From NCBI RefSeq assembly GCF_046105845.1, contig NZ_CP151004.1: a stretch of 64,000 nt of DNA; one strand, 5' to 3'. A program made the translations under genes and the position numbers. This DNA is from Escherichia coli. Lineage in GTDB: Bacteria > Pseudomonadota > Gammaproteobacteria > Enterobacterales > Enterobacteriaceae. Below, in pieces: positions 6,000 through 52,408 of this stretch; within the stretch, counting starts at the first letter, position 1, and the number at the start of each line of letters is the position of its first letter. Under the pieces are notes generated by a model, which had not been told where the DNA came from, did no database searches, and saw only the letters and a program-made list of their open reading frames with translations.

Positions 6000-7655
6000 T
6001 TAACTCATCACGCGGTCGTCAACATACTGACGTTTATCCGGCGCTGGCGGGAAATACTGATACAGCCATGTTTCACTGATAGCGTCGCCCTGACAACGCA
6101 GATACATCCGCATATCGACCGGATCAGTGGAGTCCGAAGTCGGATACCAGTCAAACTGAATACGATAACCATCAATGGGTTCAATATAGAGAATTTCGAT
6201 TTGCTTCGCTTCCCCACTGGAAAGCGTAATCACCGGCTCAATGCCTTTTGGTGCGGCAGCTTTCAGATCACCACCAACGAAATCGACGGCAAAACGACGC
6301 GCCCATTTTTCGGGATAGTGTTCACCTGGCGCCCAACCTTCCGGGAAACCGCCCATGCCGGTACGCGTCGCCATAACGCGCGCTAATGGGCAATGAACAG
6401 GCGGTTGCCCACTCCAGTACAGACGATACTGGAATGCAAACTCATCACCCGCTTTTACAGCTTTTTCTGGCTGCCAGAAGCAGACAATGTTATCCAGCGT
6501 TTCGCCCGTTGTTGGGATTTCCATCAGGCCGATGGTGCCCTTACCCCACTTGTTACGCGGTTCCACCCACAGACTTGGGCGTTTGTTATACCAGCCCATA
6601 ATGTCCTGATAATGAGAGAAATCACGATCCAGTTGCAATAAACCAAACCCTTTCGGGTTGTTGTCGGTGTAAGCATTGAACTGCAATTTTTGCGGATTGT
6701 TCAGCGGACGGCAAATCCACTCGCCGTTGCCCCGCCACATGGACAGACGATCAGAGTCATGGATTTGCGGATGAATGGTGTCGCACATCCGACGTTCATT
6801 AGTACCGCAGCTGAACATGCTGGTCATCGGCGCAATGCCCAGCTGTTTAATGTCTTTGCGCGCATACAGGTGATTTTCCACATCCATAATCACCTGACTT
6901 TTCTCACAATGGATAGTGAACTTATAGGCACCAGTAATGCTGGCGCTATCGAGCAACGCATAAACGGTAAAGGTGGTTGCCCCCGGTTTTACCGTATCAA
7001 ACCAGAAGGCGGTAAAGTCGGGGAATTCTTCTTTACTGTCGGTGTAAGTGTCGATCGCCAGGCCGCGAGCCGATAGACCGTATTGATATGTATCATCAAC
7101 CGCGCGGAAATAACTCGCGCCGAGGAATGATACGACATCACGGCGCGCCAGTTCGGGGGCTTTAAACACGCGAAAACCGGCAAAACCGAGATCACTTTGC
7201 CCTTCTAATTGTTTGGTATCAACACCCGCATCGTTGTATTTGAACAACTCCGGGCGAAAGTGAATTTCACGCGCCAGATGTGTTGCGGGATCAACAGAAA
7301 ACATACGAACGCGGCGACGGAATCCCATTCCCATATGGAAGAACTGAGCGTCCAGTTGACGGTTCTCAACGTTATGCCAGAGCGATTTTTCGGCGTCGTA
7401 TTGAATACTGTTATAAGCCTGCGGCGTCATTGTCGCCAGAGTGTCAGGTAACGGACGCGGCGCACCACGCCACGCGGTTTGCGCTAAGTCGTGCGCCATT
7501 GACTGTAGAATGGAGAAGTCAAAACGCTGGGTTTGCCCGTCGGCAATATCAGAATCTGCCGCGAATGCCGCCTGAGAAAAAAGAGAAGCAATGCCGCTGG
7601 TACCGCACACGGCGGCCATAGCCATTGAACCTTTAATAAATCGTCTACGATCCAT
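6000..7655 (-). CDS. opgD: Glucans biosynthesis protein D (OpgD/MdoD), Tat-exported
   Basis: 551-aa ORF; N-terminal twin-arginine motif DRRRFIKG; matches OpgD. Confidence 0.93.
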
Positions 7656-12107: not shown

Positions 12108-12334
12108 CGACCAAAAACCTCTTTGCGTCACATTTTTACAACAATTATGGCAGAGAAGATTAATGCCATTGGAATGAAGAGAGTAACGAATGATTAAACT
12201 GGCTAAACCGAATGACGAAAAATTCTGGAAAACAGCACGCAATTTCGTCAGGTGATTATTTTCGTCCCTAAGGAAACCACATAGGATGCTCACGGGTGCC
12301 TGAGACTTTCTGTTTTCAGGCTAACCGGGAATCA

Positions 12335-12381
12335 GAAAGACGAAGGCCCCGACCGATATTTCTATCAACCGAGGCCAACGA

Positions 12382-12395
<14 letters not shown>
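12335..12395 (-). ncRNA. sokB: Approximate position of SokB antisense RNA (antitoxin of hokB), inferred by locus architecture only
   Basis: hok/sok loci encode Sok antisense to the mok translation-initiation region; boundaries not determinable by eye. Confidence 0.3.
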
Positions 12396-12589
<194 letters not shown>

Positions 12590-13003: not shown

Positions 13004-13068
13004 CTTCCGATGTAGGCCCGTATTCTTCGCCTGTACCACGGGTCGGTTTTAGTACAGGCGTTTTCTTT
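13004..13068 (+). ncRNA. rydC: RydC small regulatory RNA (Hfq-dependent)
   Basis: cttccgatgtaggcccgtattcttcgcctgtaccacgggtcggttttagtacaggcgttttctt matches remembered RydC sequence nearly base-for-base; located between ydcA and cybB as in K-12. Confidence 0.85.
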
Positions 13069-13608: not shown

Positions 13609-13796
13609 AACATTTCCTGCTTTAAAACAATTTGCCGTTAACATAACGAGCTTTTCTTAAAATTTCATTAAATATTGTTCACCCGTTTTCAGTACGTTAC
13701 GTTTCACGGCAAGAATGTAGATTGCCCATCCCGCCATCCTGGTCTAAGCCTGGAAAGGATCAATTTTCATCCGAACGTTCCTGACAGGAGAAGACC

Positions 13797-14798
13797 ATGA
13801 GTAAAGTTGGTATTAACGGTTTTGGTCGTATCGGTCGACTGGTGTTGCGTCGATTACTTGAAGTCAAAAGCAACATAGACATTGTTGCTATTAATGATCT
13901 CACTTCCCCAAAAATTCTCGCCTACCTGTTGAAACATGATTCAAACTACGGACCGTTCCCCTGGAGCGTTGATTTTACGGAAGATTCACTTATCGTTGAT
14001 GGAAAAAGTATCGCGGTTTACGCCGAAAAAGAGGCTAAAAATATTCCATGGAAAGCGAAAGGCGCAGAAATCATTGTCGAATGTACTGGCTTTTATACCT
14101 CCGCCGAGAAATCGCAGGCGCACCTTGATGCTGGTGCGAAGAAGGTGTTGATTTCCGCCCCTGCCGGTGAAATGAAAACCATCGTTTATAACGTCAATGA
14201 CGACACACTGGATGGCAACGACACCATTGTTTCCGTGGCGTCATGCACCACTAATTGTCTTGCACCGATGGCCAAAGCCTTGCACGACAGTTTCGGAATA
14301 GAAGTCGGCACGATGACGACCATTCATGCCTATACCGGCACTCAGTCACTGGTGGATGGTCCGCGAGGTAAAGATCTACGCGCTTCACGTGCAGCGGCAG
14401 AAAATATCATTCCCCACACTACAGGTGCGGCAAAAGCCATTGGTCTGGTGATCCCGGAACTGAGCGGCAAACTGAAAGGTCATGCGCAACGCGTGCCGGT
14501 GAAAACAGGTTCGGTGACTGAGCTGGTATCGATTCTCGGAAAAAAAGTGACTGCCGAAGAGGTGAATAACGCACTTAAACAAGCAACCACCAATAACGAG
14601 TCATTTGGTTATACCGATGAAGAAATAGTCTCTTCCGATATCATTGGCAGCCATTTCGGTTCGGTGTTTGATGCCACGCAAACGGAAATTACCGCCGTGG
14701 GCGATTTACAACTGGTGAAAACGGTCGCCTGGTACGATAACGAATATGGCTTCGTCACGCAGCTTATTCGCACCCTCGAAAAGTTCGCTAAACTCTGA
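13797..14798 (+). CDS. gapC: Glyceraldehyde-3-phosphate dehydrogenase GapC, full-length (333 aa)
   Basis: Intact ORF with GAPDH motifs ([21 protein letters not shown]); at K-12 gapC position. Confidence 0.9.
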
Positions 14799-20500: not shown

Positions 20501-21450
20501 TGCCGCAGATTTAGCTTGTTCAGCGCATCGGCGGTATCGCGAATTTCCCGCTCACCGCTCATAAAGATCAGAATGTCGCCTGGGCTTTCCTGACTCAGTT
20601 CGTCTACGGCGTCAAAAATCGCCTGCAGCTGATCGCGCTCGGTGTCATCGGCTTCTTCAACAATCGGTCGATAGCGCACTTCCACCGGATAGGTCCGACC
20701 GGAGACTTCGATAATCGGCGCATTATTAAAGTGGCGCGAAAAGCGTTCCGGGTCGATAGTCGCGGAAGTGATAATGATTTTTAGGTCAGGACGCCGCGGT
20801 AGCAACTCTTTCAAATAGCCGAGCAGAAAATCGATATTCAGGCTGCGTTCGTGCGCTTCGTCAATAATGATAGTGTCGTACTGCATCAGCAGGCGGTCTT
20901 GCTGGATCTCCGCCAGCAGGATACCGTCGGTCATCAGCTTGACCATCGTGTTATCACTAACGTGATCACTGAAACGCACTTTGTAACCGATGCAACCGCC
21001 CGGCTCCGTTTTCAGCTCTTCCGCAATACGGTTCGCCACCGTTCGCGCAGCCAGACGACGCGGCTGGGTATGGCCGATCAGCCCTTTAATCCCGCGCCCC
21101 AGCTCCATACAGATTTTCGGTAGCTGAGTCGTTTTACCGGAACCCGTTTCCCCGGCGACGATCACTACCTGGTGATCACGAATTGCTTCGAAAATGTCCT
21201 GCTTTTTCTGACTAACCGGCAAATTGTCCGGATAAGTGATTTCCGGTCGTGCCGCTTCACGCAGCAGGACTTTCCCTGCCGCATGGTCAATCTCTTTCGC
21301 CATCTCCTGGAAAATGGCCTGTTGTGCATCAGGATTTTTAACCTTCTTCACGCCGTGCAGACGGCGAGAAAAACGCAGTCTGTCGCGCAGCATCAGCGAA
21401 TCCAGCCGCTGCTGCAAGGCCGTAAAGGTCAATTTTTGTTGTTCTGTCAT
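17548..21450 (-). CDS. hrpA: ATP-dependent RNA helicase HrpA (DEAH-box)
   Basis: 1300-aa ORF with Walker A GETGSGKTTQLP and DEAH box; length identical to K-12 HrpA. Confidence 0.95.
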   Translation of the reverse strand: MTEQQKLTFTALQQRLDSLMLRDRLRFSRRLHGVKKVKNPDAQQAIFQEMAKEIDHAAGKVLLREAARPEITYPDNLPVSQKKQDIFEAIRDHQVVIVAGETGSGKTTQLPKICMELGRGIKGLIGHTQPRRLAARTVANRIAEELKTEPGGCIGYKVRFSDHVSDNTMVKLMTDGILLAEIQQDRLLMQYDTIIIDEAHERSLNIDFLLGYLKELLPRRPDLKIIITSATIDPERFSRHFNNAPIIEVSGRTYPVEVRYRPIVEEADDTERDQLQAIFDAVDELSQESPGDILIFMSGEREIRDTADALNKLNLRHTEILPLYARLSNSEQNRVFQSHSGRRIVLATNVAETSLTVPGIKYVIDPGTARISRYSYRTKVQRLPIEPISQASANQRKGRCGRVSEGICIRLYSEDDFLSRPEFTDPEILRTNLASVILQMTALGLGDIAAFPFVEAPDKRNIQDGVRLLEELGAITTDEQASAYKLTPLGRQLSQLPVDPRLARMVLEAQKHGCVREAMIITSALSIQDPRERPMDKQQASDEKHRRFHDKESDFLAFVNLWNYLGEQQKALSSNAFRRLCRTDYLNYLRVREWQDIYTQLRQVVKELGIPVNSEPAEYREIHIALLTGLLSHIGMKDADKQEYTGARNARFSIFPGSGLFKKPPKWVMVAELVETSRLWGRIAARIDPEWVEPVAQHLIKRTYSEPHWERAQGAVMATEKVTVYGLPIVAARKVNYSQIDPALCRELFIRHALVEGDWQTRHAFFRENLKLRAEVEELEHKTRRRDILVDDETLFEFYDQRISHDVISARHFDSWWKKVSRETPDLLNFEKSMLIKEGAEKISKLDYPNFWHQGNLKLRLSYQFEPGADADGVTVHIPLPLLNQVEESGFEWQIPGLRRELVIALIKSLPKPVRRNFVPAPTYAEAFLGRVTPLELPLLDSLERELRRMTGVTVDREDWHWDQVPDHLKITFRVVDDKNKKLKEGRSLQDLKDALKGKVQETLSAVADDGIEQSGLHIWSFGQLPESYEQKRGNYKVKAWPALVDERDSVAIKLFDNPLEQKQAMWNGLRRLLLLNIPSPIKYLHEKLPNKAKLGLYFNPYGKVLELIDDCISCGVDQLIDANGGPVWTEEGFAALHEKVRAELNDTVVDIAKQVEQILTAVFNINKRLKGRVDMTMALGLSDIKAQMGGLVYRGFVTGNGFKRLGDTLRYLQAIEKRLEKLAVDPHRDRAQMLKVENVQQAWQQWFNKLPPARREDEDVKEIRWMIEELRVSYFAQQLGTPYPISDKRILQAMEQISG

Positions 21451-21641
21451 AACGTTAGTGGGCAGTAGGCTGCCTGATTAATTTTCTTTTAAATGATAGA
21501 TATAGAGTACCACATCGCGGCTTTCTATGCGTTGTTCAATAAATTCGAACATAGGCTTCGATTTATTGCGCTATCTCTGTGGCAGGATTGTGAATAAAGT
21601 GTCAACAAGCAACGGGGCATCGCCCATTCAAACATCTATAA

Positions 21642-22256
<615 letters not shown>

Positions 22257-22270
22257 CCGGACACGGTCTT

Positions 22271-22300
22271 GATGTGGACTGTAGATATTCAGTCCACATC
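22271..22300. terminator. Bidirectional hairpin between convergent azoR and ydbC (gatgtggactg-N8-cagtccacatc)
   Basis: 11-bp perfect inverted repeat in the 113-bp intergenic region. Confidence 0.6.
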
Positions 22301-22369
22301 TTAATCCGCTTACCTGTTTTCTATCGCTTTGTGCTCTTCCTTAAGCACAATCTGCGAGCGCCTGACTCG

Positions 22370-23230
22370 TTATTCTCGCGAAATACCATCCAACGTAGAC
22401 AACACTTCCTCAGAAAGATGCAATTTTTCAGCAGCCATATTCTCCCGTAAATGCGCAACAGAAGACGTCCCTGGGATCAGCAAAATATTCGGTGAACGTT
22501 GTAACAGCCACGCCAGCGCCACCTGCATTGGTGTTGCACCCAGGCTCGCAGCAACATCGGAAAGCGTGGAAGATTGCAGCGGCGTAAAGCCCCCGAGCGG
22601 AAAGAACGGCACGTAGGCAATGCCATCGCGGGCCAAATCATCAATCATTGCGTCATCAGCACGATGAGCAATGTTGTATTCGTTCTGCACACAGACGATT
22701 TCGGTAATCTTACGCGCCTCTGCAACCTGCGTCGGTGTGACGTTGCTCAGGCCAATATGTTTTACCAGGCCTTGTTGTTGCATCTCTGCCAGCACGGTCA
22801 GGCTGGCTTCAATCGATCCTTCCGCCGGGCCATGACCATCCCCCATCATGACGCGCAGGTTAACCACATCCAGTACGTCCAGACCGAGATTACGTAGATT
22901 ATCGTGCACCGCTTTTTGCAGCTCTGCCGGAGAAAATGCGGGCAACCAGGAAGCGTCCTCTCCACGCCGCGCACCAATTTTAGTGACAATTGTCAGGTCG
23001 TCAGAGTAAGGATGTAGCGCTTCGCGGATAATCTGATTGGTGACGTGCGGACCATAAAAGTCGCTGGTATCAATATGATTGACGCCCAATGCCAGCGCCT
23101 CGCGCAGCACGGTTATAGCAACGTGGCGATCTCTTGGGGGGCCAAAAACCCCAGGGCCTGCCAGTTGCATCGCGCCATAACCAAGACGGTTAACGGATTT
23201 TGTACCGAGAGTAAATGTGTTGCTGCTCAT
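22370..23230 (-). CDS. ydbC: Aldo-keto reductase family oxidoreductase YdbC
   Basis: 286-aa ORF with AKR fold signatures; matches remembered YdbC. Confidence 0.88.
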   Translation of the reverse strand: MSSNTFTLGTKSVNRLGYGAMQLAGPGVFGPPRDRHVAITVLREALALGVNHIDTSDFYGPHVTNQIIREALHPYSDDLTIVTKIGARRGEDASWLPAFSPAELQKAVHDNLRNLGLDVLDVVNLRVMMGDGHGPAEGSIEASLTVLAEMQQQGLVKHIGLSNVTPTQVAEARKITEIVCVQNEYNIAHRADDAMIDDLARDGIAYVPFFPLGGFTPLQSSTLSDVAASLGATPMQVALAWLLQRSPNILLIPGTSSVAHLRENMAAEKLHLSEEVLSTLDGISRE

Positions 23231-23385
23231 CGCACCCTGCCCTGTAGTAAAACGGATTAAGAAAAATCAGTATAGAAACGAAAAGAGATAAATAATGCGA
23301 AGGCGTAAACAAGATTACTGGATGAGTTGCTCTATTGTCCTTGAAGACACCAAACCAAAACGCCTAAAGCATCGCATCCGGCAAT

Positions 23386-23416
23386 AAAAAACCGCAACCT
23401 GTATCAGCGTTGCGGT
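23386..23416 (-). terminator. Rho-independent terminator downstream of paaY (accgcaac...gttgcggt + T-run on minus strand)
   Basis: 8-bp stem with A5 on plus strand; adjacent partial REP-like motif gcatcgcatccggcaa. Confidence 0.6.
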
Positions 23417-23460
23417 TTGTGTATCACATGCTAAAAATTAGAACGTCCAGCATCAGGACG

Positions 23461-24051
23461 TTACTGTTTCGGTCGCAGATTCTCATCAAATACCAGGCGT
23501 TTCCTGCCAGGTTCAACTTCCCGCAATGGCTCGACTTGATGTAACGTCTGCTTACAGCGTGTCACCAGCACCTGGTACTCATGCGTACCCTGCTTTTTCC
23601 ATGCCAACTCCTGCTCACTGAGTTCACGAATCGCTTTCGCCGGGCTGCCGACAATCAGGTAATTAGCTGGCATTTCTGCTTTGGCTTTCACAAATGCGGA
23701 TGCGCCAACAATGCTGTTCTCGCCAATCACCGCACCGTCTATCACTACCGCGTTCATTCCCACTAATGCATTGCGGCGGATAATGCAGCCGTGAAGGATA
23801 GCGCTATGACCAATATGTCCATCTTCTTCCACGACAGTATCCTGCTCGGGAAAACCGTGCATAACGCAATTATCCTGAATGTTCGCGCCATTTTTCACCA
23901 CGATACGATCAAAATCGCCACGCAGGCTGGCATTTGGCCCAACGTAAACGCCCTTGCCGAGAATAACATCGCCGATCAATACCGCTGTCGGATGAACAAA
24001 ACTCTCTTGTGGTACAACCGGAGTCAGACCGTCTATCTGATAAATTGGCAT
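23461..24051 (-). CDS. paaY: PaaY-like hexapeptide-repeat acyltransferase/thioesterase, intact but lacking the rest of the paa cluster
   Basis: 196-aa [37 protein letters not shown]... with left-handed beta-helix repeats; matches PaaY. Confidence 0.85.
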
Positions 24052-24158
24052 AACGCCTCCTGTTCAATATTCAAGCCGCCAAAACGTTGAAAATACAGGC
24101 TTCCCGGCGCAGGCAATTCACCGACCGAGGTTTCACCTTTTTCACTAACGAACGCTAA
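24033..24158 (-). pseudogene. paaX: 3'-terminal remnant of paaX (about 40 C-terminal codons), 5' part deleted
   Basis: Minus-strand frame ends 19 nt inside paaY as expected for paaX; N-terminal part of the 97-aa ORF is antisense to the feaR remnant, so only about 24033-24158 is likely paaX-derived; junction position approximate. Confidence 0.45.
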
Positions 24159-24392
24159 AGCAGCAGGCGCTACGCGCTGATAAAGTTTGCCGATAAAGGT
24201 TTGGTAGTCGCGCAATATATCCGTAACCGTCGTCTCGATTTTTGTGCAGATGCGATTCGCCATGCCGCAGATGATGAAAAACTGGCAGGCATTGGCTTTC
24301 ATTGGGGATTTTCCGACCAGAGTCATTTTTCAACGGTATTTAAGCAACGCTTTGGGATGACGCCAGGCGAGTATCGACGTAAATTCCGCTAA
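24159..24392 (+). pseudogene. feaR: 3'-terminal remnant of feaR (AraC-family C-terminal HTH region), 5' part deleted
   Basis: Plus frame ...YALIKFADKGLVVAQYIRNRRLDFCADAIRHAADDEKLAGIGFHWGFSDQSHFSTVFKQRFGMTPGEYRRKFR* is a typical AraC/XylS second HTH; in-frame stop at 24156-24158; convergent with ydbL as feaR is in K-12. Confidence 0.5.
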
Positions 24393-24428
24393 CTAATTCG
24401 CGTTGCATGTACAGCAACGCGAATTAGT
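24391..24428. terminator. Perfect 16-bp inverted repeat (aactaattcgcgttgc-atgtac-gcaacgcgaattagtt) between feaR remnant and ydbL
   Basis: Seen directly; lies at the convergent 3' ends; no strong T-run, so could be a bidirectional terminator or a protein-binding palindrome. Confidence 0.5.
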
Positions 24429-24563
24429 TAAAACAGATATTTGACTATGCATTTTTCAGGGCGAAAGGCAATTTGACAGGAATTTTTGAATATTCACCTT
24501 GTTTCCGGAAAATAGAATAATCGCCTTCTCCTGTAGCGTTATCCCGATATTGCGGTTTTGCTA

Positions 24564-24890
24564 TTAAAATTTTCGCACCCATTTACCGTTTATCCCTTGT
24601 ACATATTCCCCCGGTTTAGCCCGAGCTACGAGCTTTTGCCCGGCGAGTTTCGCGATATCATCTACCGAGACATTATTTTGCTTTGCCAGTTGTTGGTAAC
24701 TCGCTTTACGTTCGGCATTAATGTCGTTTACTAATTTCTCTGTTTCAGCATCTGTTTTCAGCGCAACCAGATAACCATAAAATGTTTCCCCTACCCGCCC
24801 CTGAGTTCTGGCTTCATCCAGAGTCAATGCCATTACATTGCTGCTTACCAGCCCAACAAGAAACGCACAAAGAAGTAATGTTTTCTTCAT
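24564..24890 (-). CDS. ydbL: DUF1318-family periplasmic protein YdbL
   Basis: Start trimmed to MKKTLLLCAFLVGLVSSNVMA (signal peptide), 108 aa. Confidence 0.85.
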   Translation of the reverse strand: MKKTLLLCAFLVGLVSSNVMALTLDEARTQGRVGETFYGYLVALKTDAETEKLVNDINAERKASYQQLAKQNNVSVDDIAKLAGQKLVARAKPGEYVQGINGKWVRKF

Positions 24891-24897
24891 CATCGCC

Positions 24898-25083
24898 TCA
24901 AAAAAGATCGCTACGAGTCTCAAGCAGCTCTTCGACATCTTTGTCTGCCTTGATGATGATCTCATGCTCAATTTTAACGTTCATATTGATAGTGATTGGT
25001 TCCTTAGGTGCAGCGACTTCAATGCGAGGCGTACAGCCAACCAGCATAAAAGATGACGTCAACGCAGCCAGTAAAATTTTCAT
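24898..25083 (-). CDS. ynbE: Small lipoprotein YnbE
   Basis: 61-aa ORF with lipobox (LVGCT); overlaps ydbH stop (coupled). Confidence 0.85.
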   Translation of the reverse strand: MKILLAALTSSFMLVGCTPRIEVAAPKEPITINMNVKIEHEIIIKADKDVEELLETRSDLF

Positions 25084-27719
25084 TGTTTTTCCTCACACTC
25101 TTTTCCTTGCGGACAGTCATTTCCCGGCAGACGTGCGTTCTGCTCCAACCATGCCTGGAGATTATCGCCAAAGCGTAAACTGCGCCACAGCGTAAAAATA
25201 TTCTCTTCGTGATGGTAATTAAGGTTTACCGTACCGCTTTTACCATCAACGCGACTGGTACCTGTAATGTTGGCCTGCATGGTTAATAAACCGAGATTAT
25301 CTAAGTTAATTTTTGTCGATGAACGGCTAATTTCCATATAGCGCAACCAGTTAATTGCTGAACCCGCAGTCATATTGTCTTTTACCACCGCATCAGCAGT
25401 GTCTTTATCCAGCCGCAAGGTCATTGGCCCGCTATTTGCCAGCCAACCATCTTTCACTATCCATTTTTCGTTGTTTAGCCATAACGGCAATGCACCACTA
25501 AATGCCCCGGACATGGCGAATTGTTTCGGATTGACGGCGCTAACCAGTTCGCTGGATGAGAGATTATTCAGCCGCAACAGCGCCGGGTCATGTTGCGGCA
25601 TACGTAATTGTTTCATCAGCACGTTACCGCCTAACACATCGACGCTAACATCAGTCAACAGCAATGGTTCTTCTTCAGTCCACGGATAACGCCCTTGCAA
25701 ATCAGCCGTAATATTTTTCGCTGTCACCAGATTAATCACTTCGGCAATTCGCAACGTAACGGGGCCGCGAGTCCCCAGATGCCAGGCTCCATCGGCAAAA
25801 CGGAAAGGCAGGACAAAATCGACACCGTTAACCTGATTATCTGGCATCCAGGCACTACCGCCTTTCAACACACCGTGCCCTCCCGCGCGGAATCCTTGTT
25901 CAGGCGCAGCAGAAAATGCAACCTGGGCATACAGTTCGCCATCGCGTAAGTTCATCTTCCAGTCGGGTGGCACCAGCGGCTGGAATACAGTTAGTGATTG
26001 TTTAGGCCACCAGGCGTTACCGCGCAGACGAATACCGTCCCAGCGACCATTTACCCGAACCGGGCCAATCTCACCAGCATGTAAATCGCCTTTAAAGAGG
26101 AAATACGTCGGATCGCGTCCATCGACGCTAAATTTTAAGGTTGATGGCGGTAACACACTGCCGCCAGTGAACAGCGTTTGCCCGGCGTCCAGTGACAGCG
26201 CGCCGCTAAAGGAGGGATGCTGTGCGTCACGTACCCAGACGACGGGCTTATCGAGAATTAGTCGCGGCTTTTCTACCGTCATCGTACCGTATTGTAACTG
26301 GTCGAAACCGGTGGAGAGATCGGTCAGCGTAATCGTGCTGTCATGCCACTCACCCTTTCCTGCGACATCCCAGGTGGCATTCATCGGTGTAAAACTGCCT
26401 TTTCCCCAGTAGCGCCACTGCCAGCGGCCAGCGTCAGGGAGAAAATCATTCGCCAGTCCATCCATATGCAGCACGAAATCGCCCAGTTCATTTTCATGCG
26501 CCTGCAAAATGGCCTGCAAACGTCCGTCAACACCACGTTGGGTGACTTTTACACCCGCTAAAGGCCAGCGGATTTCATCGATGTCCAGCGAATCGATGAC
26601 TCTTCCCTTCGAACGTAATAACGCGCCTGGCTCAAAGGCCAGCGTTGGGTCAGTCAGACTTCCGCTTAGCTGCGCAGGTAAACGGGCATATAAAATGAGG
26701 TCCGCCTGTTTCGCTTCACCGGTCAGTTGCATAGGCAGCTGGCTGTTATCCATGCTTAATTTTCCAGGGCCAAAATTAAGCACCGCGTTGCCCTTACCCG
26801 CTTGCCCCTGGGTCAGCACACTCAGTCGTCCGCTGACCAGAGCGTTCTCGAGCCCTGCCTGCCAGTTGTCGACTTTGACACCCAGTCGGCCACTCAAAGG
26901 AAAACCTGCATACGGCCAGCTCCAGCGACCATCGCTTACGGTCAATTGTTGACGAGTAATTTGCCACGGCAGATCGAGCAACGGATCACCGTTATCCTGT
27001 GCCAGCACAATCAATTGCCCGCTATTTTCCTGCCAGTCCAGCTCGGCATCCACCAGTGAAGGCTCCTGCGGCAAGTTTAACGTCGCAGTAGCATGACCAC
27101 TTACAGGAAGTCCATCCGGCACGAGCGGCATAGTAAATTCCCCCACCAGTTTAACCGGCGGCTGATTTTCAAACGCGACGACATCCAGTTCGCTGACTGT
27201 AAGTTGTTGCCCTTTCAGCTGGCCTTGAAATTTAACTTTTTCGCCCTGATAACGCAGTTGCTGGATATCAGAGGTTAACGCGAGAGAGAGTTTTCCCTGC
27301 CACTCCTGCCAGGGAGAAAAAATCAGTTTATCGATATTGATCCAGGTGTTAGGCAACATGGCCTGCCACTGCGCGAGGGTTTTTGGAGCGGCAGGCGATT
27401 GCTCCGTCTGCGGCAATTTCGCCAGACAAGCAGAATCAAGTTCTACCGTGCCGACGTTCAATAACCAGCGGCTGGGATGTGAAAGGCTGGCGTTGGTGAT
27501 ATGCGCAAGCTGACAATCTCCCACCAGATAACGGAGATCGGGGATGATTAAACCTTTACGCGTAATACGTGGGCTTTCATCTAATGCAATACGTGTCCCG
27601 AGCGGTAGCCAGATGCCCGCCAGCGTGGGAACCCACAAGCCGAGCGTCATCAGCAGCGTCAACGGCACAAGAATAATCAGTAATAACAGCGCGAGAACGG
27701 CTTTATTTTTACCCAGCAT
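25080..27719 (-). CDS. ydbH: Large AsmA-like/DUF748 envelope protein YdbH
   Basis: 879-aa ORF with N-terminal TM anchor; length identical to K-12 YdbH; ydbH-ynbE-ydbL operon. Confidence 0.9.
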   Translation of the reverse strand: MLGKNKAVLALLLLIILVPLTLLMTLGLWVPTLAGIWLPLGTRIALDESPRITRKGLIIPDLRYLVGDCQLAHITNASLSHPSRWLLNVGTVELDSACLAKLPQTEQSPAAPKTLAQWQAMLPNTWINIDKLIFSPWQEWQGKLSLALTSDIQQLRYQGEKVKFQGQLKGQQLTVSELDVVAFENQPPVKLVGEFTMPLVPDGLPVSGHATATLNLPQEPSLVDAELDWQENSGQLIVLAQDNGDPLLDLPWQITRQQLTVSDGRWSWPYAGFPLSGRLGVKVDNWQAGLENALVSGRLSVLTQGQAGKGNAVLNFGPGKLSMDNSQLPMQLTGEAKQADLILYARLPAQLSGSLTDPTLAFEPGALLRSKGRVIDSLDIDEIRWPLAGVKVTQRGVDGRLQAILQAHENELGDFVLHMDGLANDFLPDAGRWQWRYWGKGSFTPMNATWDVAGKGEWHDSTITLTDLSTGFDQLQYGTMTVEKPRLILDKPVVWVRDAQHPSFSGALSLDAGQTLFTGGSVLPPSTLKFSVDGRDPTYFLFKGDLHAGEIGPVRVNGRWDGIRLRGNAWWPKQSLTVFQPLVPPDWKMNLRDGELYAQVAFSAAPEQGFRAGGHGVLKGGSAWMPDNQVNGVDFVLPFRFADGAWHLGTRGPVTLRIAEVINLVTAKNITADLQGRYPWTEEEPLLLTDVSVDVLGGNVLMKQLRMPQHDPALLRLNNLSSSELVSAVNPKQFAMSGAFSGALPLWLNNEKWIVKDGWLANSGPMTLRLDKDTADAVVKDNMTAGSAINWLRYMEISRSSTKINLDNLGLLTMQANITGTSRVDGKSGTVNLNYHHEENIFTLWRSLRFGDNLQAWLEQNARLPGNDCPQGKECEEKQ

Positions 27720-33510: not shown

Positions 33511-33538
33511 ATGCACTGGATAAGGATTATCCAATTCT

Positions 33539-33648
33539 AAAAAAAAGCCCGGACGACTGTTCGGGCTTGTCTTTTTATATGTTGGAAAATCAGTGCCAAT
33601 GCAATGGCCCAACAGAAAATAAAATCTGTGACAATAAAGGCATATAAC
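33539..33648 (-). ncRNA. micC: MicC small RNA (Hfq-dependent repressor of ompC/ompD)
   Basis: Reverse complement GTTATATGCCTTTATTGTCACAGATTTTATTTTCTGTTGGGCCATTGCATTGGCACTGATTTTCCAACATATAAAAAGACAAGCCCGAACAGTCGTCCGGGCTTTTTTTT matches remembered MicC including terminator; divergent from ompN as in K-12. Confidence 0.9.
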
Positions 33649-33875
33649 CCGCGCAGAATAACGTATAGCAAATTAAAAGTATAATTTTTATTTTGTATGT
33701 ATTATCTTCGATACATTCACCAGACTTATTATCATTTCAGAGGAATTATTTGATTAAGGTTTTACTTAAGGCGTAACAAATGATATTTATCGGCTAACTG
33801 TACTTCTCCTTTAGGATGTTTTCACTCCCCGAAATGGGGATAAAAGGCAAATAAAATAACTAAAGGATTTATTCA

Positions 33876-36808: not shown

Positions 36809-38182
36809 TTATTTTAATAACCGCACCCGGCACGTTTTTCCTTTAATCTTCCCGCCCTGTAACTGTTTCCATGCTTTATGAGCAACAGCCTGACGCACCG
36901 CGACATAGACATGCGCCGGATGCACGGCGATTTTGCCAATATCTGCGCCATCAAGCCCGATATCTCCTGTCAGCGCACCTAATACATCACCCGGGCGCAT
37001 TTTGGCTTTTTTCCCGCCATCGATACATAACGTTGCCATTTCGGCTTCCAGCGGCACAATGGAACTATTAACTGGCGGCGTTTGCCAGTTAAGTTTTATC
37101 TGCAACATGTCAGAAATGATATTGGCCCGCTGTGCTTCTTCCGGGGCACAGAAACTGATCGCCAGACCGCTATTTCCTGCACGCGCTGTACGACCGATGC
37201 GATGTACATGAACTTCAGGATCCCACGCCAGCTCAAAGTTCACCACCAGCTCAAGCGATTTAATATCCAGACCTCGCGCAGCAACATCAGTCGCAACCAG
37301 TACACGGGCGCTACCGCTAGCAAAACGTACCAGGGTCTGATCGCGATCACGTTGCTCCAGATCGCCGTGTAACGACAATGCACTTTGCCCTACTTCATTC
37401 AGCGCGTCGCAGACAGCCTGGCAATCTTTTTTGGTATTGCAAAACACCACACAAGAGGATGGCTGATGCAAGCTTAATAACCGTTGCAACAGAGGAATTT
37501 TGCCTTTACTGGATGTCTCATAAAATTGTTGTTCAATGGGTGGCAGAGCATCTGTTGAGTCAATTTCAATCGCTAAAGGATCGCGTTGCACTCGTCCGCT
37601 GATTGCGGCGATGGCTTCCGGCCAGGTTGCCGAAAACAGAAGCGTCTGGCGAGATGCTGGCGCAAAACGGATGACATCATCAATGGCGTCGCTAAATCCC
37701 ATATCCAGCATGCGGTCGGCCTCATCCATCACCAGCGTATTCAACGCATCCAGTGATACCGTGCCTTTTTGCAGATGATCCAACAAACGGCCCGGCGTTG
37801 CCACGATAATATGCGGCGCATGTTGCAACGAATCACGCTGCATACCGAACGGTTGACCACCGCACAACGTCAAAATTTTGGTATTTGGCAGAAAACGCGC
37901 CAGCCGACGCAATTCACCTGCCACCTGATCCGCCAGTTCACGCGTAGGACACAGCACTAAAGCCTGGGTTTGAAATAGCGACGCATCAATTTGCTGTAAC
38001 AAGCCGAGGCCAAAAGCCGCCGTTTTGCCGCTGCCGGTTTTCGCCTGCACGCGAACATCTTTTCCGGCAAGGATCGCCGGAAGCGCGGCGGCCTGCACCG
38101 GCGTCATGGTTAAATAACCCAACTCATTAAGGTTCGTGAGTTGGGCGGGAGGCAAAACATTCAGGGTAGAAAAAGCGGTCAC
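36809..38182 (-). CDS. dbpA: ATP-dependent 23S rRNA-specific DEAD-box RNA helicase DbpA
   Basis: 457-aa ORF with Walker A (AKTGSGKT) and DEAD motif (VMDEADRM); GTG start. Confidence 0.95.
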   Translation of the reverse strand: MTAFSTLNVLPPAQLTNLNELGYLTMTPVQAAALPAILAGKDVRVQAKTGSGKTAAFGLGLLQQIDASLFQTQALVLCPTRELADQVAGELRRLARFLPNTKILTLCGGQPFGMQRDSLQHAPHIIVATPGRLLDHLQKGTVSLDALNTLVMDEADRMLDMGFSDAIDDVIRFAPASRQTLLFSATWPEAIAAISGRVQRDPLAIEIDSTDALPPIEQQFYETSSKGKIPLLQRLLSLHQPSSCVVFCNTKKDCQAVCDALNEVGQSALSLHGDLEQRDRDQTLVRFASGSARVLVATDVAARGLDIKSLELVVNFELAWDPEVHVHRIGRTARAGNSGLAISFCAPEEAQRANIISDMLQIKLNWQTPPVNSSIVPLEAEMATLCIDGGKKAKMRPGDVLGALTGDIGLDGADIGKIAVHPAHVYVAVRQAVAHKAWKQLQGGKIKGKTCRVRLLK

Positions 38183-38211: not shown

Positions 38212-38385
38212 TCAGCAGGCGCGTATCCTCGCAGATCTACGCTCACGATGCGACAATTTAATCGGTTCTTCGTCGGGTGGTGGGTCAGGCATGGGTTGCG
38301 GGCGAGGGATTGGATCGGGCACAGGAACAGGATCGCCAGGAATCGGTTCAGGGACAGGAATTTGCAAATAAATAAGTGTCGTCAT
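38212..38385 (-). CDS. Candidate 57-codon proline-rich small ORF immediately upstream of dbpA (hypothetical)
   Basis: ATG at 38385 preceded by GGAGGG 5 nt upstream; product MTTLIYLQIPVPEPIPGDPVPVPDPIPRPQPMPDPPPDEEPIKLSHRERRSARIRAC; not in ORF track (<60 aa); the plus strand of the same DNA gives Gly-rich ORFs, so coding status is unproven. Confidence 0.4.
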   Translation of the reverse strand: MTTLIYLQIPVPEPIPGDPVPVPDPIPRPQPMPDPPPDEEPIKLSHRERRSARIRAC

Positions 38386-38442
38386 ATTTCCCTCCGGTCA
38401 TTGGGTGGACACTTAAAGGGTAGACGCTGATAAATAACAGGC

Positions 38443-38564
38443 AAAAAAAAGCCGACTCATCAAAGTCGGCGTCGTACGAATCAATTGTGCTATGCAGTAA
38501 TTCAAAAAAGGAAGTAAGACAATATGGAGCGCAACGCCCATCGCTTGACGTTGCATTCACCTGC
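38443..38564 (-). ncRNA. fnrS: FnrS small RNA (FNR-activated, Hfq-dependent)
   Basis: Reverse complement begins GCAGGTGAATGCAACGTCAAGCGATGGGCGTTGCGCTCCATATTGTCTTACTTCC and ends in GC hairpin + T8, matching remembered FnrS; between zntB and dbpA. Confidence 0.9.
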
Positions 38565-38599
38565 AAGAGAGATATTGCCCTGAATGGGTAGAGAGTTTA

Positions 38600-38613
38600 T
38601 TGACTTCGCTCAA
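38600..38613 (-). promoter_or_regulatory. FNR binding site (TTGAG-CGAA-GTCAA on minus strand) centred about -42 of fnrS
   Basis: Near-consensus FNR box TTGAT-N4-ATCAA at class II activator position relative to inferred FnrS 5' end. Confidence 0.65.
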
Positions 38614-38659
38614 ACTTTGCGGCGTTTTTGTATACAGAAAGCCGGGAAAATTTCTTTTG

Positions 38660-39664
<1,005 letters not shown>

Positions 39665-41150: not shown

Positions 41151-41714
41151 TCAACGGCTGCGCTTAGCGTGGCGCTCCCAGTTTTCTTGCTTCGCCTGCG
41201 CCGTTTTACGTAGTGCGACGTAACACGCCCCGCTGCCGCCATGATACGGTAGCGCGGTGCAATATGCCTGAACATCATCAAATTCGGTCAGCCAGCGCGC
41301 CACATAGCTGCGGACAATATTGGCATGCGATTTATCATCCCGCCCTTTACCATGAATAATCAGCACGTTACGCAAACCATCCGCCATGGCTTGTTGAATG
41401 AAACTGAACATCATTTTGCGGCACTCTTCCACCGGCTGGCGCAAAAGATTCAGGCTCGCCTGTTGCGGATATTTACCACTGCGCAGCTTATCCAGCACCC
41501 CATGTTGCAACCCTTCCCGCCGAAACTCCAGCGGCTGACTTAGCGGGATGATGTCGAGAAATCCGGTGGTGAGGAAATTATCAAGTTGCAGCGTGTCAAT
41601 ACGCTGCGGCGCACGTTGGTTACGCGTTGGATGCCAGTGGACATCTGTAGCACGTTTCAGCGGCTGGACATCTTCCATGGCGTCAAGAAACAGCGATTTG
41701 TCGTCAAGGTTCAT
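41151..41714 (-). CDS. smrA: Smr-domain endonuclease SmrA (YdaL)
   Basis: 187-aa ORF with Smr domain (LIIHGKG); K-12 synteny. Confidence 0.88.
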   Translation of the reverse strand: MNLDDKSLFLDAMEDVQPLKRATDVHWHPTRNQRAPQRIDTLQLDNFLTTGFLDIIPLSQPLEFRREGLQHGVLDKLRSGKYPQQASLNLLRQPVEECRKMMFSFIQQAMADGLRNVLIIHGKGRDDKSHANIVRSYVARWLTEFDDVQAYCTALPYHGGSGACYVALRKTAQAKQENWERHAKRSR

Positions 41715-41908
41715 GTAACCTCCTATGCACCTTCACACGTCGTGATTCAGACGGGTTAATTGTTCATACTTACTGCATCGTTCCCTTCACAGATTGAAAC
41801 AATACTCTACTTCATACCTGTGAGTATCTGCGCAGGCGGGGCATTTTATACTAGCCTGTTAGCAGTATCGAACAGTTTAGCCCGAGTTTAATTCAGCACA
41901 GGCTCCGA

Positions 41909-43423
41909 TCAGGATGATTTATTCATAGCAGGAACCAACAAAAATGCGATAAATAACAGACCACTGATTAGCAGAAAGGTATCCGAAAATGCCATAGTTT
42001 GCGCCTCCCTCAGCATCAATTGACTCAATAATTTGGTTGAAGCCAGTATTTCCGATGTCTGGTCACTTCCACTGCGATTAAAAAACAAAGCACTTCTGGA
42101 AATGAAGTCATTCACCGTATGGGGAACAGAAACCATTTTTTCACTCATTCTCGAAAAATGAAAATTAGTTCGATTATTGAGAATAGAGCCACACAGGGCA
42201 ATACCAATCGCGCCCCCAAGATTACGTGTTAAATTAAATACACCAGAGGCTAACTTCAGCCGTTCTTTTGGAATTCCCCCCAGCGTTAATGTTACGATGG
42301 GGGCCATCGCAAACTGCTGCGAAATCCCTCTAATTGCCTGTGGAAACAGTAACTCCTGCCATCCCCATTCGTGGGTTATAGGGGTAAAAAGATACATTGA
42401 AAACACAAATCCACCCAGCCCCGCCATCAACAGCCATCGCAGATTTATTTTTTTACTTAACCAGAAGTAAAAGGGAACAGAAAATAACTGGAAAATACCT
42501 GTTGTGCAAACGGCAAAACCTATCTCTTCGGCATTTAATCCGCGAACCTGTCCCAAAAACACAGGTATTAAATATACAGTAGAGAATATCCCAACCCCTC
42601 CAGAAAAAGAAAAAAAACATCCCAGCGTGAAATTTTTATCCTTAAAAGCATGAAGATCCATTATCGGATTGGATATTGTAAGTGTACGCGCAGCAAATAA
42701 AATAAAACTCACCAATGCCAGAACTGATGTCAGCAAAATAGTATTATCATCCAGCCATCCCCAGCGCGCTCCTTCTTCAAGGGTATATTCCAGACATCCC
42801 AGTGTCATGGCCAACAGGATAATACTCGGATAATCAGCAACTTTCAGTAAAGAGAGATCAGGTTTATCAAAATTAACCAGAAAAGGAATACTCAAAACTA
42901 AATATATGCCAGGTAATATATTGATATAAAATAGCCATCGCCAGTCGAGGTTATCAGTGATCCAGCCCCCCAGAGTTGGCCCTAGCGTCGGTGACAGTGA
43001 GGCCAGCGCACTGACTACCGCAGCAGCCAACCCCAACTCTTTACCCTGGTAATAAATAAACGCCGTCGTGAAAACTAAAGGGATCATGGATGCGCCAGCC
43101 GCTCCCTGTAAAGCACGAAACAAAATCATGATCTGAATATTCCATGCAAGTCCACACGCGATACTCATTAAAGTAAATATTCCCGCGGATAGAGTAAAAA
43201 GCCAACGAGTGGAAAATACCCGTGACAGCCACCCAGAGAGCGGAATAACAATAATCTCAGCAATTAAATAGCTGGTCTGAAGCCAGGCCATTTCGTCTTT
43301 ACCTGCGGACAGACCACCACCTATTTCATTTAGGGATGACGATACAATTTGAATATCAAGCTGAGCAATAAATAATCCCATACACATACTGGCGAAAGCA
43401 ATATGTTTACGCATAGACATCAT
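41909..43423 (-). CDS. MFS drug/H+ antiporter, DHA2 (14-TMS, EmrB/QacA-like) family
   Basis: 504-aa highly hydrophobic ORF with MFS signatures; 4-bp overlap with upstream MFP gene; AT-rich relative to flanks; no counterpart at this position in K-12 (memory). Confidence 0.85.
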   Translation of the reverse strand: MMSMRKHIAFASMCMGLFIAQLDIQIVSSSLNEIGGGLSAGKDEMAWLQTSYLIAEIIVIPLSGWLSRVFSTRWLFTLSAGIFTLMSIACGLAWNIQIMILFRALQGAAGASMIPLVFTTAFIYYQGKELGLAAAVVSALASLSPTLGPTLGGWITDNLDWRWLFYINILPGIYLVLSIPFLVNFDKPDLSLLKVADYPSIILLAMTLGCLEYTLEEGARWGWLDDNTILLTSVLALVSFILFAARTLTISNPIMDLHAFKDKNFTLGCFFSFSGGVGIFSTVYLIPVFLGQVRGLNAEEIGFAVCTTGIFQLFSVPFYFWLSKKINLRWLLMAGLGGFVFSMYLFTPITHEWGWQELLFPQAIRGISQQFAMAPIVTLTLGGIPKERLKLASGVFNLTRNLGGAIGIALCGSILNNRTNFHFSRMSEKMVSVPHTVNDFISRSALFFNRSGSDQTSEILASTKLLSQLMLREAQTMAFSDTFLLISGLLFIAFLLVPAMNKSS

Positions 43424-44451
43424 CTCTCATCAACACTGACGGTGACGGACAGTCCCGGGCGAAGAAGTTGCTTTAATTCCTTTGCGTCGTCAAATGCAAT
43501 CCGTACCGGGACACGCTGAACAATTTTGGTGAAATTGCCAGTGGCATTTTCTATCGGAATCAAGCTGAAACTGGCTCCTGTCGCTGGGGAAAGGCTTTCA
43601 ATGTGACCGTGAAACACTTCCCCTTTGAGAATATCAGCACGGATCTCAGCCTTCATTCCTGGCTTCATTCCCGCTATTTGGTTTTCTTTATAATTTGCAT
43701 CAACCCACAACTCACTGACTGGTACTAGTGAAACTAACGATGTGCCGCCTTCCACCCAACTGCCTGTATGGGCGCTGCGGTTTGCGACAATGCCATCAAT
43801 CGGCGCACGAACAAGGGTATATTCCAGATCCAGTAGTGCCTGAGTCAAAGCGGCCTGAACTTCTTCGATACTCGCACGTGCGTTTTCTTCCTGAGCAGAT
43901 AAAACTGCCAGCCGTTGCTTCTCCACCATGAAATCGTTCGCGGCTTTGCGCTCCTTTGCTGCGACCTGCTGGTAGTCAAACCTGGCGTTATCAATAATTT
44001 GTTGCGATATTGCCGCTGATTGTGCGAGTTTTTCATAACGTTCAGTATCTCGCAGGCGCTTTTGCTCCTCATGTTTTACTGCCTGCCATGTTTCACTGGC
44101 ACTTTGAATTATCGACTGCTGCATCGCAATAGTGGCTTGAATGCTTTCGAGATTGGCTTTGCTACTTTTTATTTTTGCCTCAAGCCTGGCGACATTTGCA
44201 CGATAATCCCGATCATCGAGACGCAGGATAATATCGCCTTTTTTTACGCTCTGATTATCGCGCACCTCTATAGCAGAAATATAACCAGAAACTTTACTTG
44301 CCACCGTGGTGATATTACCACCAATGTAAGCATCATCCGTCGTCTGTATAAATCTTCCTTTACTTACCCACCAGATAAAAAAGACAACGCCAGTCAAAAG
44401 AATACCGATCGCTACCACCCCAATAAGCTGTTTTTTAGAAATTATCATCAC
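43420..44451 (-). CDS. HlyD/EmrA-family membrane fusion protein (periplasmic adaptor)
   Basis: 343-aa ORF with N-terminal TM anchor, long coiled-coil segment and beta-barrel/lipoyl regions typical of EmrA-like MFPs. Confidence 0.85.
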   Translation of the reverse strand: MMIISKKQLIGVVAIGILLTGVVFFIWWVSKGRFIQTTDDAYIGGNITTVASKVSGYISAIEVRDNQSVKKGDIILRLDDRDYRANVARLEAKIKSSKANLESIQATIAMQQSIIQSASETWQAVKHEEQKRLRDTERYEKLAQSAAISQQIIDNARFDYQQVAAKERKAANDFMVEKQRLAVLSAQEENARASIEEVQAALTQALLDLEYTLVRAPIDGIVANRSAHTGSWVEGGTSLVSLVPVSELWVDANYKENQIAGMKPGMKAEIRADILKGEVFHGHIESLSPATGASFSLIPIENATGNFTKIVQRVPVRIAFDDAKELKQLLRPGLSVTVSVDER

Positions 44452-44544
44452 TCTTTACACCGTATATATCCGGAAACTTGCATTCGTCATATTTAAAATT
44501 TAACATGGCTTATTTGATGGTTTCTGACAAAATACCTACTGTAA

Positions 44545-45360
44545 ATGACAATCACACTGCAACCCAAAGCATCACCAGGGCATCACATTATCGGACTGGA
44601 TTCGGAACATCTGAATGGAGGCACAGTTCCCTGGCATAAACATCTCTATGCCCAGTTGCTTTACCCGGCTGAAGGAGTCGTTCGTGTATGGGCTGGAGAA
44701 AGCGTCTGGTTAGTGCATGCCAGCAGCGCGCTTTGGCTGCCCCCACAAATGCCGCATAAGTTTGTTGCGACAGGCAACGTACTTTTAAAAACCGTACTGG
44801 TTTCAGAAGCGGAAAGTGAAACGCTGGGAAAAGTTTGCTTCATGACGGGTATTTCACCCCTGTTAAGAGAATTACTAATTGCAATTAACCAACTTCCACC
44901 GTCGCAAAGTACCACAGATAAACAACAGTTACGTTTTTCAGCCCTCGAGACACTGATACTTCAGGAAATAAAAATGGGGGTGAAAATGTCACTTGAACTC
45001 CCTTGGCCAAATGATGAGCGGCTACAGCAGCTTTGTGAGAATTTGCTAAACAACCAAGGGTATCTGCCAACACTGGATAATCTAGCGGATAAAATTAACG
45101 TCAGTAGCCGTACACTCATGCGCTTATTTGTTAAAGAGACGGGATTAACATTTCGCCACTGGGTTCAGCAAATGCACGTTATTTCTGCAGTGACGCTTCT
45201 TGATGATGGATATTCGTTGACCAAAATTGCCCATCGTCTGGGCTATGCCTCAGCTGAATCGTTCGGCAATATGTTTAAGCGTCGAACGGGCTACTCGCCC
45301 GGTAAATTTACTCGTCGATTAACGATGCATGATTATGCAATCACAAGACAAATGATTTAA
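44545..45360 (+). CDS. AraC/XylS-family transcriptional regulator with N-terminal cupin-like sensor domain
   Basis: 271-aa ORF; C-terminal HTH pair (…SRTLMRLFVKETGLTFRHWVQQMHV… LGYASAESFGNMFKRRTGYSPGKF); divergent from the MFP-MFS operon with 93-bp intergenic. Confidence 0.8.
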   Translation: MTITLQPKASPGHHIIGLDSEHLNGGTVPWHKHLYAQLLYPAEGVVRVWAGESVWLVHASSALWLPPQMPHKFVATGNVLLKTVLVSEAESETLGKVCFMTGISPLLRELLIAINQLPPSQSTTDKQQLRFSALETLILQEIKMGVKMSLELPWPNDERLQQLCENLLNNQGYLPTLDNLADKINVSSRTLMRLFVKETGLTFRHWVQQMHVISAVTLLDDGYSLTKIAHRLGYASAESFGNMFKRRTGYSPGKFTRRLTMHDYAITRQMI

Positions 45361-45430
45361 CTTATATTTTCGTGAAATCTGTCACTGAAGAAAATTGGCA
45401 ACGGATGGGTAAAACCGTTATAACACTGTC

Positions 45431-45524
45431 ACCGGTCACCAGGACCCCAGGCCGGATTTAAGACGAGGATGCACTGCTGTGTGTACTGTAGAGTCTGGCG
45501 GATGTCGACAGACTCTATTTTTTT
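45431..45524 (+). ncRNA. mcaS: McaS (IsrA) small RNA
   Basis: ...ggccggatttaagacgaggatgcactgctgtgtgtactgtagagtctggcggatgtcgacagactctattttttt matches remembered McaS 3' two-thirds and terminator; convergent with abgR as in K-12. Confidence 0.8.
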
Positions 45525-45532
45525 ATGCAGTT

Positions 45533-51622: not shown

Positions 51623-51636
51623 TTGACAAATATCAA
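51623..51636 (+). promoter_or_regulatory. FNR box (TTGAC-AAAT-ATCAA) in fnr promoter/leader, consistent with negative autoregulation
   Basis: Near-perfect FNR consensus 20 nt upstream of fnr ATG. Confidence 0.55.
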
Positions 51637-51655: not shown

Positions 51656-52408
51656 ATGATCCCGGAAAAGCGAATTATACGGCGCATTCAGTCTGGCGGT
51701 TGTGCTATCCATTGCCAGGATTGCAGCATCAGCCAGCTTTGCATCCCGTTCACACTCAACGAACATGAGCTTGATCAGCTTGATAATATCATTGAGCGGA
51801 AGAAGCCTATTCAGAAAGGCCAGACGCTGTTTAAGGCTGGTGATGAACTTAAATCGCTTTATGCCATCCGCTCCGGTACGATTAAAAGTTATACCATCAC
51901 TGAGCAAGGCGACGAGCAAATTACTGGTTTCCATTTAGCAGGCGATCTGGTGGGATTTGATGCCATCGGCAGCGGTCATCACCCGAGCTTCGCGCAGGCG
52001 CTGGAAACCTCGATGGTATGTGAAATCCCGTTCGAAACGCTGGACGATTTGTCTGGTAAAATGCCGAATCTGCGTCAGCAGATGATGCGTCTGATGAGCG
52101 GTGAAATCAAAGGCGATCAGGACATGATCCTGCTGTTGTCGAAGAAAAATGCCGAGGAACGTCTGGCTGCATTCATCTACAACCTGTCCCGTCGTTTTGC
52201 CCAACGCGGCTTCTCCCCTCGTGAATTCCGCCTGACGATGACTCGTGGCGATATCGGTAACTATCTGGGCCTGACGGTAGAAACCATCAGCCGTCTGCTG
52301 GGTCGCTTCCAGAAAAGCGGTATGCTGGCAGTCAAAGGTAAATACATCACCATCGAAAATAACGATGCGCTGGCCCAGCTTGCTGGTCATACGCGTAACG
52401 TTGCCTGA
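51656..52408 (+). CDS. fnr: Global anaerobic regulator FNR (CRP/FNR family, 4Fe-4S)
   Basis: 250-aa product [32 protein letters not shown]... with N-terminal Cys cluster; ORF track start over-extended. Confidence 0.95.

Follow-up and report, generated by a model that had tools for sequence, protein, structure and literature searches.

The segment at positions 38443-38613 on the minus strand of the window (the whole stretch of 64,000 nucleotides of Escherichia coli DNA analysed here) is the canonical E. coli fnrS locus, a class II FNR-activated sRNA gene, with a probability that we put at about 0.97. The segment is exactly the sRNA together with its promoter as far as the distal end of the FNR box, and none of the sequence features contradicts this reading. 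This analysis itself established which RNA is encoded, how it folds and covaries, where the FNR box lies and how well it is conserved, as well as the synteny and the agreement in sequence with K-12; FNR occupancy, anaerobic induction, Hfq dependence and targets come from published work on K-12, in which the sequence is identical. For the function of FnrS and the position of its start we relied on secondary citations and on the K-12 annotation. The features of the locus and the two genes that enclose it are as follows.

38660..39643, minus strand: zntB, zinc transporter, ending 95 nt upstream of the fnrS start
38600..38613, minus strand: FNR site TTGAGCGAAGTCAA, from -49 to -36, centre -42.5, the class II activator position
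38572..38577, minus strand: fnrS -10 hexamer CAATAT, from -13 to -8, as read from the sequence
38443..38564, minus strand: fnrS sRNA gene, 122 nt, with its start at 38564 and its 3' end in the U-tract at 38443 (RF01796; identity to K-12 b4699)
38530..38555, minus strand: 5' stem-loop of FnrS, nt 10-35 (MFE and centroid folds, Rfam consensus structure, compensatory changes in Arsenophonus)
38504..38524, minus strand: C/U-rich stretch UAUUGUCUUACUUCCUUUUUU, nt 41-61, single-stranded and presumed to be the anti-Shine-Dalgarno seed (no pairing in the Rfam structure)
38443..38470, minus strand: intrinsic terminator, an 8-bp GC-rich hairpin at 38451-38470 with a U8 tail at 38443-38450 (terminator scan, fold)
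36809..38182, minus strand: dbpA, DEAD-box RNA helicase, starting 29 nt past the stop codon of ynaL

The first-pass annotation had placed fnrS at 38443-38613, in the zntB-dbpA intergenic region, and had named beforehand an Rfam search as the test that could overturn this assignment. When the whole window was scanned, FnrS (RF01796) was recovered at 38447-38564 on the minus strand with 134.8 bits, against a gathering score of 60 (E 4.4e-24), and the match spans the entire covariance model, positions 1-119 of 119. The 122-nt K-12 annotation of fnrS (b4699, 1409129-1409250) maps onto 38443-38564. Since K-12 fnrS begins 95 nt past the zntB stop codon and the spacing in the window is equal, the gene can be placed at 38443-38564 with its start at 38564. 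The gene, its FNR box, ynaL, zntB and dbpA all lie on the minus strand, which the first-pass annotation had left unstated.

The RNA has the architecture of FnrS, namely a 5' stem-loop, a C/U-rich linker, a small middle hairpin and an intrinsic terminator with a U-tail. In an alignment of 31 diverse fnrS sequences, used for structure and covariation, the pairs of the 5' stem are kept through compensatory changes in Arsenophonus, and three pairs of the terminator stem covary in 10-14 of the 31 species. The middle hairpin is present in the single-sequence fold and in the Rfam structure and was not recovered in the RNAalifold consensus of the 31 sequences; the single-sequence fold itself is just modestly more stable than those of shuffled sequences (z = -1.67). 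The unpaired run ATTGTCTTACTTCC is nearly invariant between genera in the same alignment, which would fit its accepted role as a pairing region; that the C/U-rich stretch acts as the seed is something we take from established knowledge of FnrS. The terminator appears strong (an 8-bp stem with 5 G-C pairs, followed by U8), and such a hairpin and tail would be compatible with an Hfq-binding 3' end.

That the stretch encodes a small protein instead of, or besides, a regulatory RNA is a reading to which we give next to no credence, although the six-frame list does hold two minus-strand open reading frames over fnrS, one of 47 aa (38413-38556) and one of 72 aa (38348-38566). The U-run and the terminator loop of fnrS differ among species by indels of 1-3 nt, which break the reading frame from one species to another, and both overlapping frames were rejected on this ground. 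Moreover, conservation tracks the RNA stems, with their compensatory pairs, and not codons. Neither start is preceded by a Shine-Dalgarno sequence, and nothing comparable is annotated in K-12.

The promoter can be read directly from the DNA upstream of 38564. Positions 38600-38613 of the plus strand are TTGACTTCGCTCAA, the reverse complement of which is the FNR site listed above. Its core is a perfect TTGA-N6-TCAA; compared with TTGAT-N4-ATCAA it carries two mismatches in the 10-base consensus, both at the inner, least critical positions. This bears out the near-consensus class II box that had been proposed at -42, the centre at -42.5 being that of the K-12 ChIP-seq site. The promoter lacks a separate -35 hexamer, its place being taken by the FNR site, and a plain sigma-70 scan returned no complete promoter at fnrS, as would be expected of an activator-dependent class II promoter. 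The number of FNR motifs in the window is not above chance, with three perfect TTGA-N6-TCAA cores versus 1.84 expected from shuffled sequences. Two of the three are the sites at the fnrS and fnr promoters; the third, TTGACGGTTCTCAA at 7356-7369 on the plus strand, falls in the coding sequence of opgD, probably by chance. The significance of the fnrS box therefore derives from its fixed position relative to an RNA verified by a covariance model, from its conservation, and from K-12 ChIP-seq on the identical sequence.

We aligned the 477-bp zntB-dbpA intergenic region to K-12 and to the closest complete genome. Between the FNR box and the end of the terminator, both included, it shows no difference from K-12 MG1655 (100% identity), so published results on the K-12 allele apply directly. 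An 801-bp stretch around fnrS was found in 5393 of 5426 complete E. coli genomes. In K-12 the fnrS promoter shows an FNR ChIP-seq peak, a site at -42.5 and raised sigma-70 occupancy without oxygen, and 11 operons have been placed under indirect control through FnrS (Myers et al. 2013, PMC3688515). Furthermore, fnrS is among the targets activated by ArcA, which acts as a co-activator (Park et al. 2013, PMC3798270), and a 2024 study describes anaerobic expression of FnrS, FNR-dependent levels, Hfq-assisted pairing and repression of iscR (PMC11572966).

In order to follow the locus across species, species-representative genomes were scanned with a pattern of the 5' stem-loop, which yielded at least 120 loci. 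Among the matches listed, 118 of 120 start with GCAGGTGA at the expected offset, and all of these belong to Enterobacterales; the genera include Citrobacter, Enterobacter, Klebsiella, Yersinia, Serratia, Erwinia and Pantoea, and further Pectobacterium, Dickeya, Edwardsiella, Hafnia, Photorhabdus and Arsenophonus. A perfect TTGA-N6-TCAA occurs at -49 to -36 in 85 of the 118 species among these listed matches. The boxes of the other 33 comprise 28 with a single core mismatch (typically CTGA in Erwinia and Pantoea, and TTGC in a few others) and five whose position is shifted, by 1 nt or through an indel. At the same offset, 86 of the 118 listed have CAATAT, CAAACT or CACTAT as the -10 hexamer.

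The sequence between zntB and fnrS raises the question of whether FnrS is mainly a product of the zntB 3' UTR, that is, of read-through that ends or is processed near a shared terminator, with the FNR box playing a minor part. The genomic context characteristic of FnrS, zntB (ydaN) directly upstream on the same strand, is present here and likewise in 108 of 117 of the matches listed, the usual distance from the zntB stop codon to the fnrS start being about 98 nt. Between the zntB stop (38660) and fnrS there is no intrinsic terminator: a terminator scan and folding revealed no hairpin with a U-tract behind it on the minus strand at 38565-38659, and 38565-38675 folds no more stably than shuffled sequences. 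We nevertheless regard this origin as very improbable. The -10 hexamer and the FNR box stand in fixed register to the invariant 5' end of the RNA in the 118 species among the matches listed, FNR and sigma-70 have been detected at the fnrS promoter by ChIP-seq, and FnrS levels depend on FNR (PMC3688515, PMC11572966). Judging from the sequence, transcription of zntB may continue through fnrS as far as its terminator, which would add longer zntB-fnrS transcripts, yet the sRNA is explained without them. The absence of a zntB terminator before fnrS goes slightly beyond the literature that we consulted.

The mechanism that we propose for the FNR-activated fnrS gene follows that described for K-12. 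Under anaerobiosis, dimeric [4Fe-4S]-FNR would bind the site centred at -42.5, stand in for the -35 element and activate RNA polymerase at the CAATAT -10 hexamer by class II activation. Transcription from 38564 to the hairpin and U8 of the terminator would give the 122-nt Hfq-dependent sRNA, whose C/U-rich stretch and 5' region would pair with the ribosome-binding regions of mRNAs that are unneeded without oxygen and reduce their translation and stability; reported targets include sodB, gpmA, folE, cydDC and iscR. FnrS would thus be the repressing, indirect arm of the FNR regulon, and fnr, 13.1 kb away, would repress itself through its own box at its transcription start.

The regulator gene was found in the same window, together with an FNR box of its own, as the first-pass annotation had noted:

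51656..52408, plus strand: fnr coding sequence, 250 aa from the ATG (MIPEKR...), from the list of open reading frames and the collinear annotation of strain 2012C-4221
51623..51636, plus strand: FNR box TTGACAAATATCAA at the fnr promoter, the autorepression site, centre -0.5, from the sequence and PMC3688515 Table 1

Direct repression of fnr through an FNR site at -0.5 is reported in K-12 (Myers et al. 2013, PMC3688515 Table 1). From the fnrS start to the fnr ATG we measured 13,092 bp, in agreement with the distance of about 13 kb given earlier, compared with 9.6 kb in K-12. Between smrA and mcaS/abgR (approximately 41200-45400) the window is about 3.5 kb longer than K-12. The additional ~3.5 kb that strain 2012C-4221 has between smrA and abgR comprises a DHA2-family MFS efflux gene, an HlyD-family gene and a gene for an AraC-family regulator, and the window appears, from the comparison with that strain, to carry the same addition, which accounts for a gap of 13 kb rather than 9.6 kb; other E. 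coli strains with this addition likewise have fnr 13 kb from fnrS.

Several other observations concern the window as a whole. Five known sRNAs scored above their Rfam gathering thresholds within the 64 kb, FnrS and the following four:

33531-33651, minus strand: MicC
45431-45526, plus strand: McaS
13004-13067, plus strand: RydC
12294-12445, plus strand: sok antitoxin RNA of hokB/sokB

At 21000-25500 and around 35700 the window has a compact arrangement, hrpA-azoR-pdxI-paaY-ydbH, without ynbABCD/ydbD and without the paa operon; it was found at a coverage of at least 80% in just 7 of 5426 complete E. coli genomes, at about 96% identity. At 13788-14789 on the plus strand (the gapC region) a type I glyceraldehyde-3-phosphate dehydrogenase is annotated as intact in the closest strain of the alignment, and in K-12 gapC is a pseudogene. 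The best identity of the window to any complete E. coli genome is just 99.0-99.3%, indicating that its lineage is poorly represented among complete genomes of the species. In this divergent lineage the K-12-identical circuit, from FNR through FnrS to the repression of aerobic functions, is intact. The fnrS locus, its FNR promoter and the neighboring ynaL are all already known, and the result matters little beyond correct annotation.

The proline-rich open reading frame that had been noticed downstream of fnrS proved to be that of the validated small protein YnaL. The features between fnrS and dbpA are:

38414..38424, minus strand: TCTACCCTTTA, predicted extended -10 of a ynaL promoter, a 9/11 match to KCTAYRCTTAA
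38390-38395, minus strand: ynaL Shine-Dalgarno sequence GGAGGG, 5 nt before the ATG
38212..38385, minus strand: ynaL, 57-aa proline-rich small protein (list of open reading frames, Pfam PF23677, identity to K-12 b4743)

With this gene included, the description of the intergenic region as unusually feature-dense is a fair one, and the K-12 locus is already annotated in the same way. The product, MTTLIYLQIPVPEPIPGDPVPVPDPIPRPQPMPDPPPDEEPIKLSHRERRSARIRAC, is 100% identical in amino-acid sequence to K-12 YnaL (b4743) and matches PF23677 with 136.9 bits (cut-off 27); the gene differs from that of K-12 by four silent nucleotides, of which three are synonymous changes and one is a swap of stop codon. 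An NCBIfam match of YnaL to a TonB proline-rich spacer was rejected as compositional, being far below threshold (20.8 bits versus a cut-off of 315). Synthesis of YnaL in K-12 was demonstrated by chromosomal SPA tagging, the tagged protein being seen in aerated LB cultures, and ynaL-dbpA was proposed as a possible operon (VanOrsdel et al., PMC6001520).

Examination of the loci collected above indicates a different association. Among the matches listed, 70 of 118 species, spanning Enterobacteriaceae and Erwiniaceae, have a ynaL-like reading frame 3' of the fnrS T-tract and on its strand. Its start codon follows the T-tract by 48-68 nt (median 58), except in two of these 70, where the distance is 102 and 165 nt, and all 70 have a Shine-Dalgarno sequence, 65 of them with at least five bases of AGGAGG. 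No such frame was found between +170 and +360 of the listed fnrS loci of Yersinia, Serratia, Pectobacterium, Dickeya, Edwardsiella, Hafnia and Photorhabdus. In at least 10 species with ynaL, dbpA is missing from the 1.5-4 kb of downstream flank or has moved by 1.7-4.3 kb, and three of the listed loci, two of them from Kluyvera, have dbpA straight after fnrS and no ynaL. Since ynaL is kept where dbpA is elsewhere and is missing from these three loci with dbpA directly behind fnrS, it travels with fnrS and not with dbpA. The C-terminus of YnaL occurs in two types, one ending in ...DEEPIKLSHRxRRSARIRAC (Escherichia, Citrobacter, Enterobacter, Klebsiella) and the other in ...DPDPHPIIDPPPH(R/M) (Pantoea, Erwinia, Cedecea, Pluralibacter and others).

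Little of the spacer between fnrS and ynaL (38386-38450) is conserved apart from CTAnnCTtaAAG, which sits some 30 nt ahead of the ATG. For sigma-S, the consensus of the extended -10 is KCTAYRCTTAA, with C at -13 (Weber et al. 2005, as cited in PMC5650638). A match of at least 9/11 to it was found in 62 of 68 species, compared with 3% of shuffled spacers; given the relatedness of these species, the counts are not independent. In Enterobacteriaceae a -35-like TTGCCT overlaps the U-tract of fnrS at its end; the Erwiniaceae have a TTGCCA some 18 nt upstream of the hexamer in the spacer. A plain sigma-70 scan returned no promoter in this spacer. A ChIP-seq paper on sigma-S (PMC4447067) names neither dbpA, zntB nor fnrS, and the supplements of Adams 2021 list neither fnrS nor ynaL. 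The motif points to a promoter of its own for ynaL, predicted from sequence and possibly of the sigma-S type.

The median distance of 58 nt from the T-tract to ynaL, on the same strand in 70 of the 118 listed species and even without an adjacent dbpA, and the spacer without a sigma-70 promoter would also suit expression of ynaL solely by read-through of the FNR-dependent fnrS transcript, in a single anaerobic operon fnrS-ynaL(-dbpA). Such an operon seems unlikely to us. The fnrS terminator, with its 8-bp stem, 5 G-C pairs and U8, looks strong, YnaL-SPA is present in aerated LB (PMC6001520), and the -10-like element, which keeps a constant distance to the ynaL ATG, matches the sigma-S consensus; it is because of this conserved motif that we place pure read-through below a model in which ynaL has its own promoter. 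We tentatively suggest, with somewhat less than even confidence, that fnrS and ynaL are a two-gene cassette conserved across Enterobacteriaceae and Erwiniaceae, in which YnaL would be made from its own sigma-S-type promoter at 38414..38424 and be tied to FnrS/zntB and not to dbpA. If this cassette were real, the -35 element of the ynaL promoter would abut or overlap the U-tract of the fnrS terminator, the promoter could be influenced, through interference or read-through, by transcription and termination of fnrS, and the locus would combine two signals, oxygen by way of FNR and FnrS and stationary phase by way of sigma-S and YnaL. The co-conservation of fnrS and ynaL and the sigma-S-like -10 motif go slightly beyond the literature consulted.

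Compared with known systems, the locus is closest to its counterpart in K-12 MG1655 (b4699), where the 122-nt RNA, the -10 hexamer, the FNR box and their spacing are identical base for base and the flanking genes, zntB, ynaL and dbpA, are the same. K-12 YnaL (b4743, PF23677), a validated small protein, has the same 57 aa and the same place between fnrS and dbpA. The differences lie outside the locus: fnr is at a distance of 9.6 kb in K-12 and 13.1 kb here, and the window has no Rac prophage at ttcA.

FnrS is conventionally counted as an intergenic sRNA, and DapZ and MicL are sRNA genes whose own promoter is embedded in the 3' region of the upstream gene. Like these two, fnrS lies behind a coding gene of the same orientation, no terminator separates the two genes, and one terminator would serve both; unlike DapZ and MicL, it has a promoter entirely downstream of the zntB stop codon. 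Processing of FnrS from zntB mRNA is not documented in the literature consulted.

The fnrS promoter is categorised with those of narK, nrfA, bssR and ydhY (PMC3688515 Table 1). These class II FNR promoters (-41.5 for narK, nrfA and bssR, -42.5 for ydhY) likewise consist of a single TTGA-N6-TCAA site over the -35 position and a -10 hexamer. The centre of the fnrS site at -42.5 is 1 bp off the modal -41.5 and is shared with ydhY. In contrast to narK, nrfA, bssR and ydhY, the product of fnrS is a non-coding RNA.
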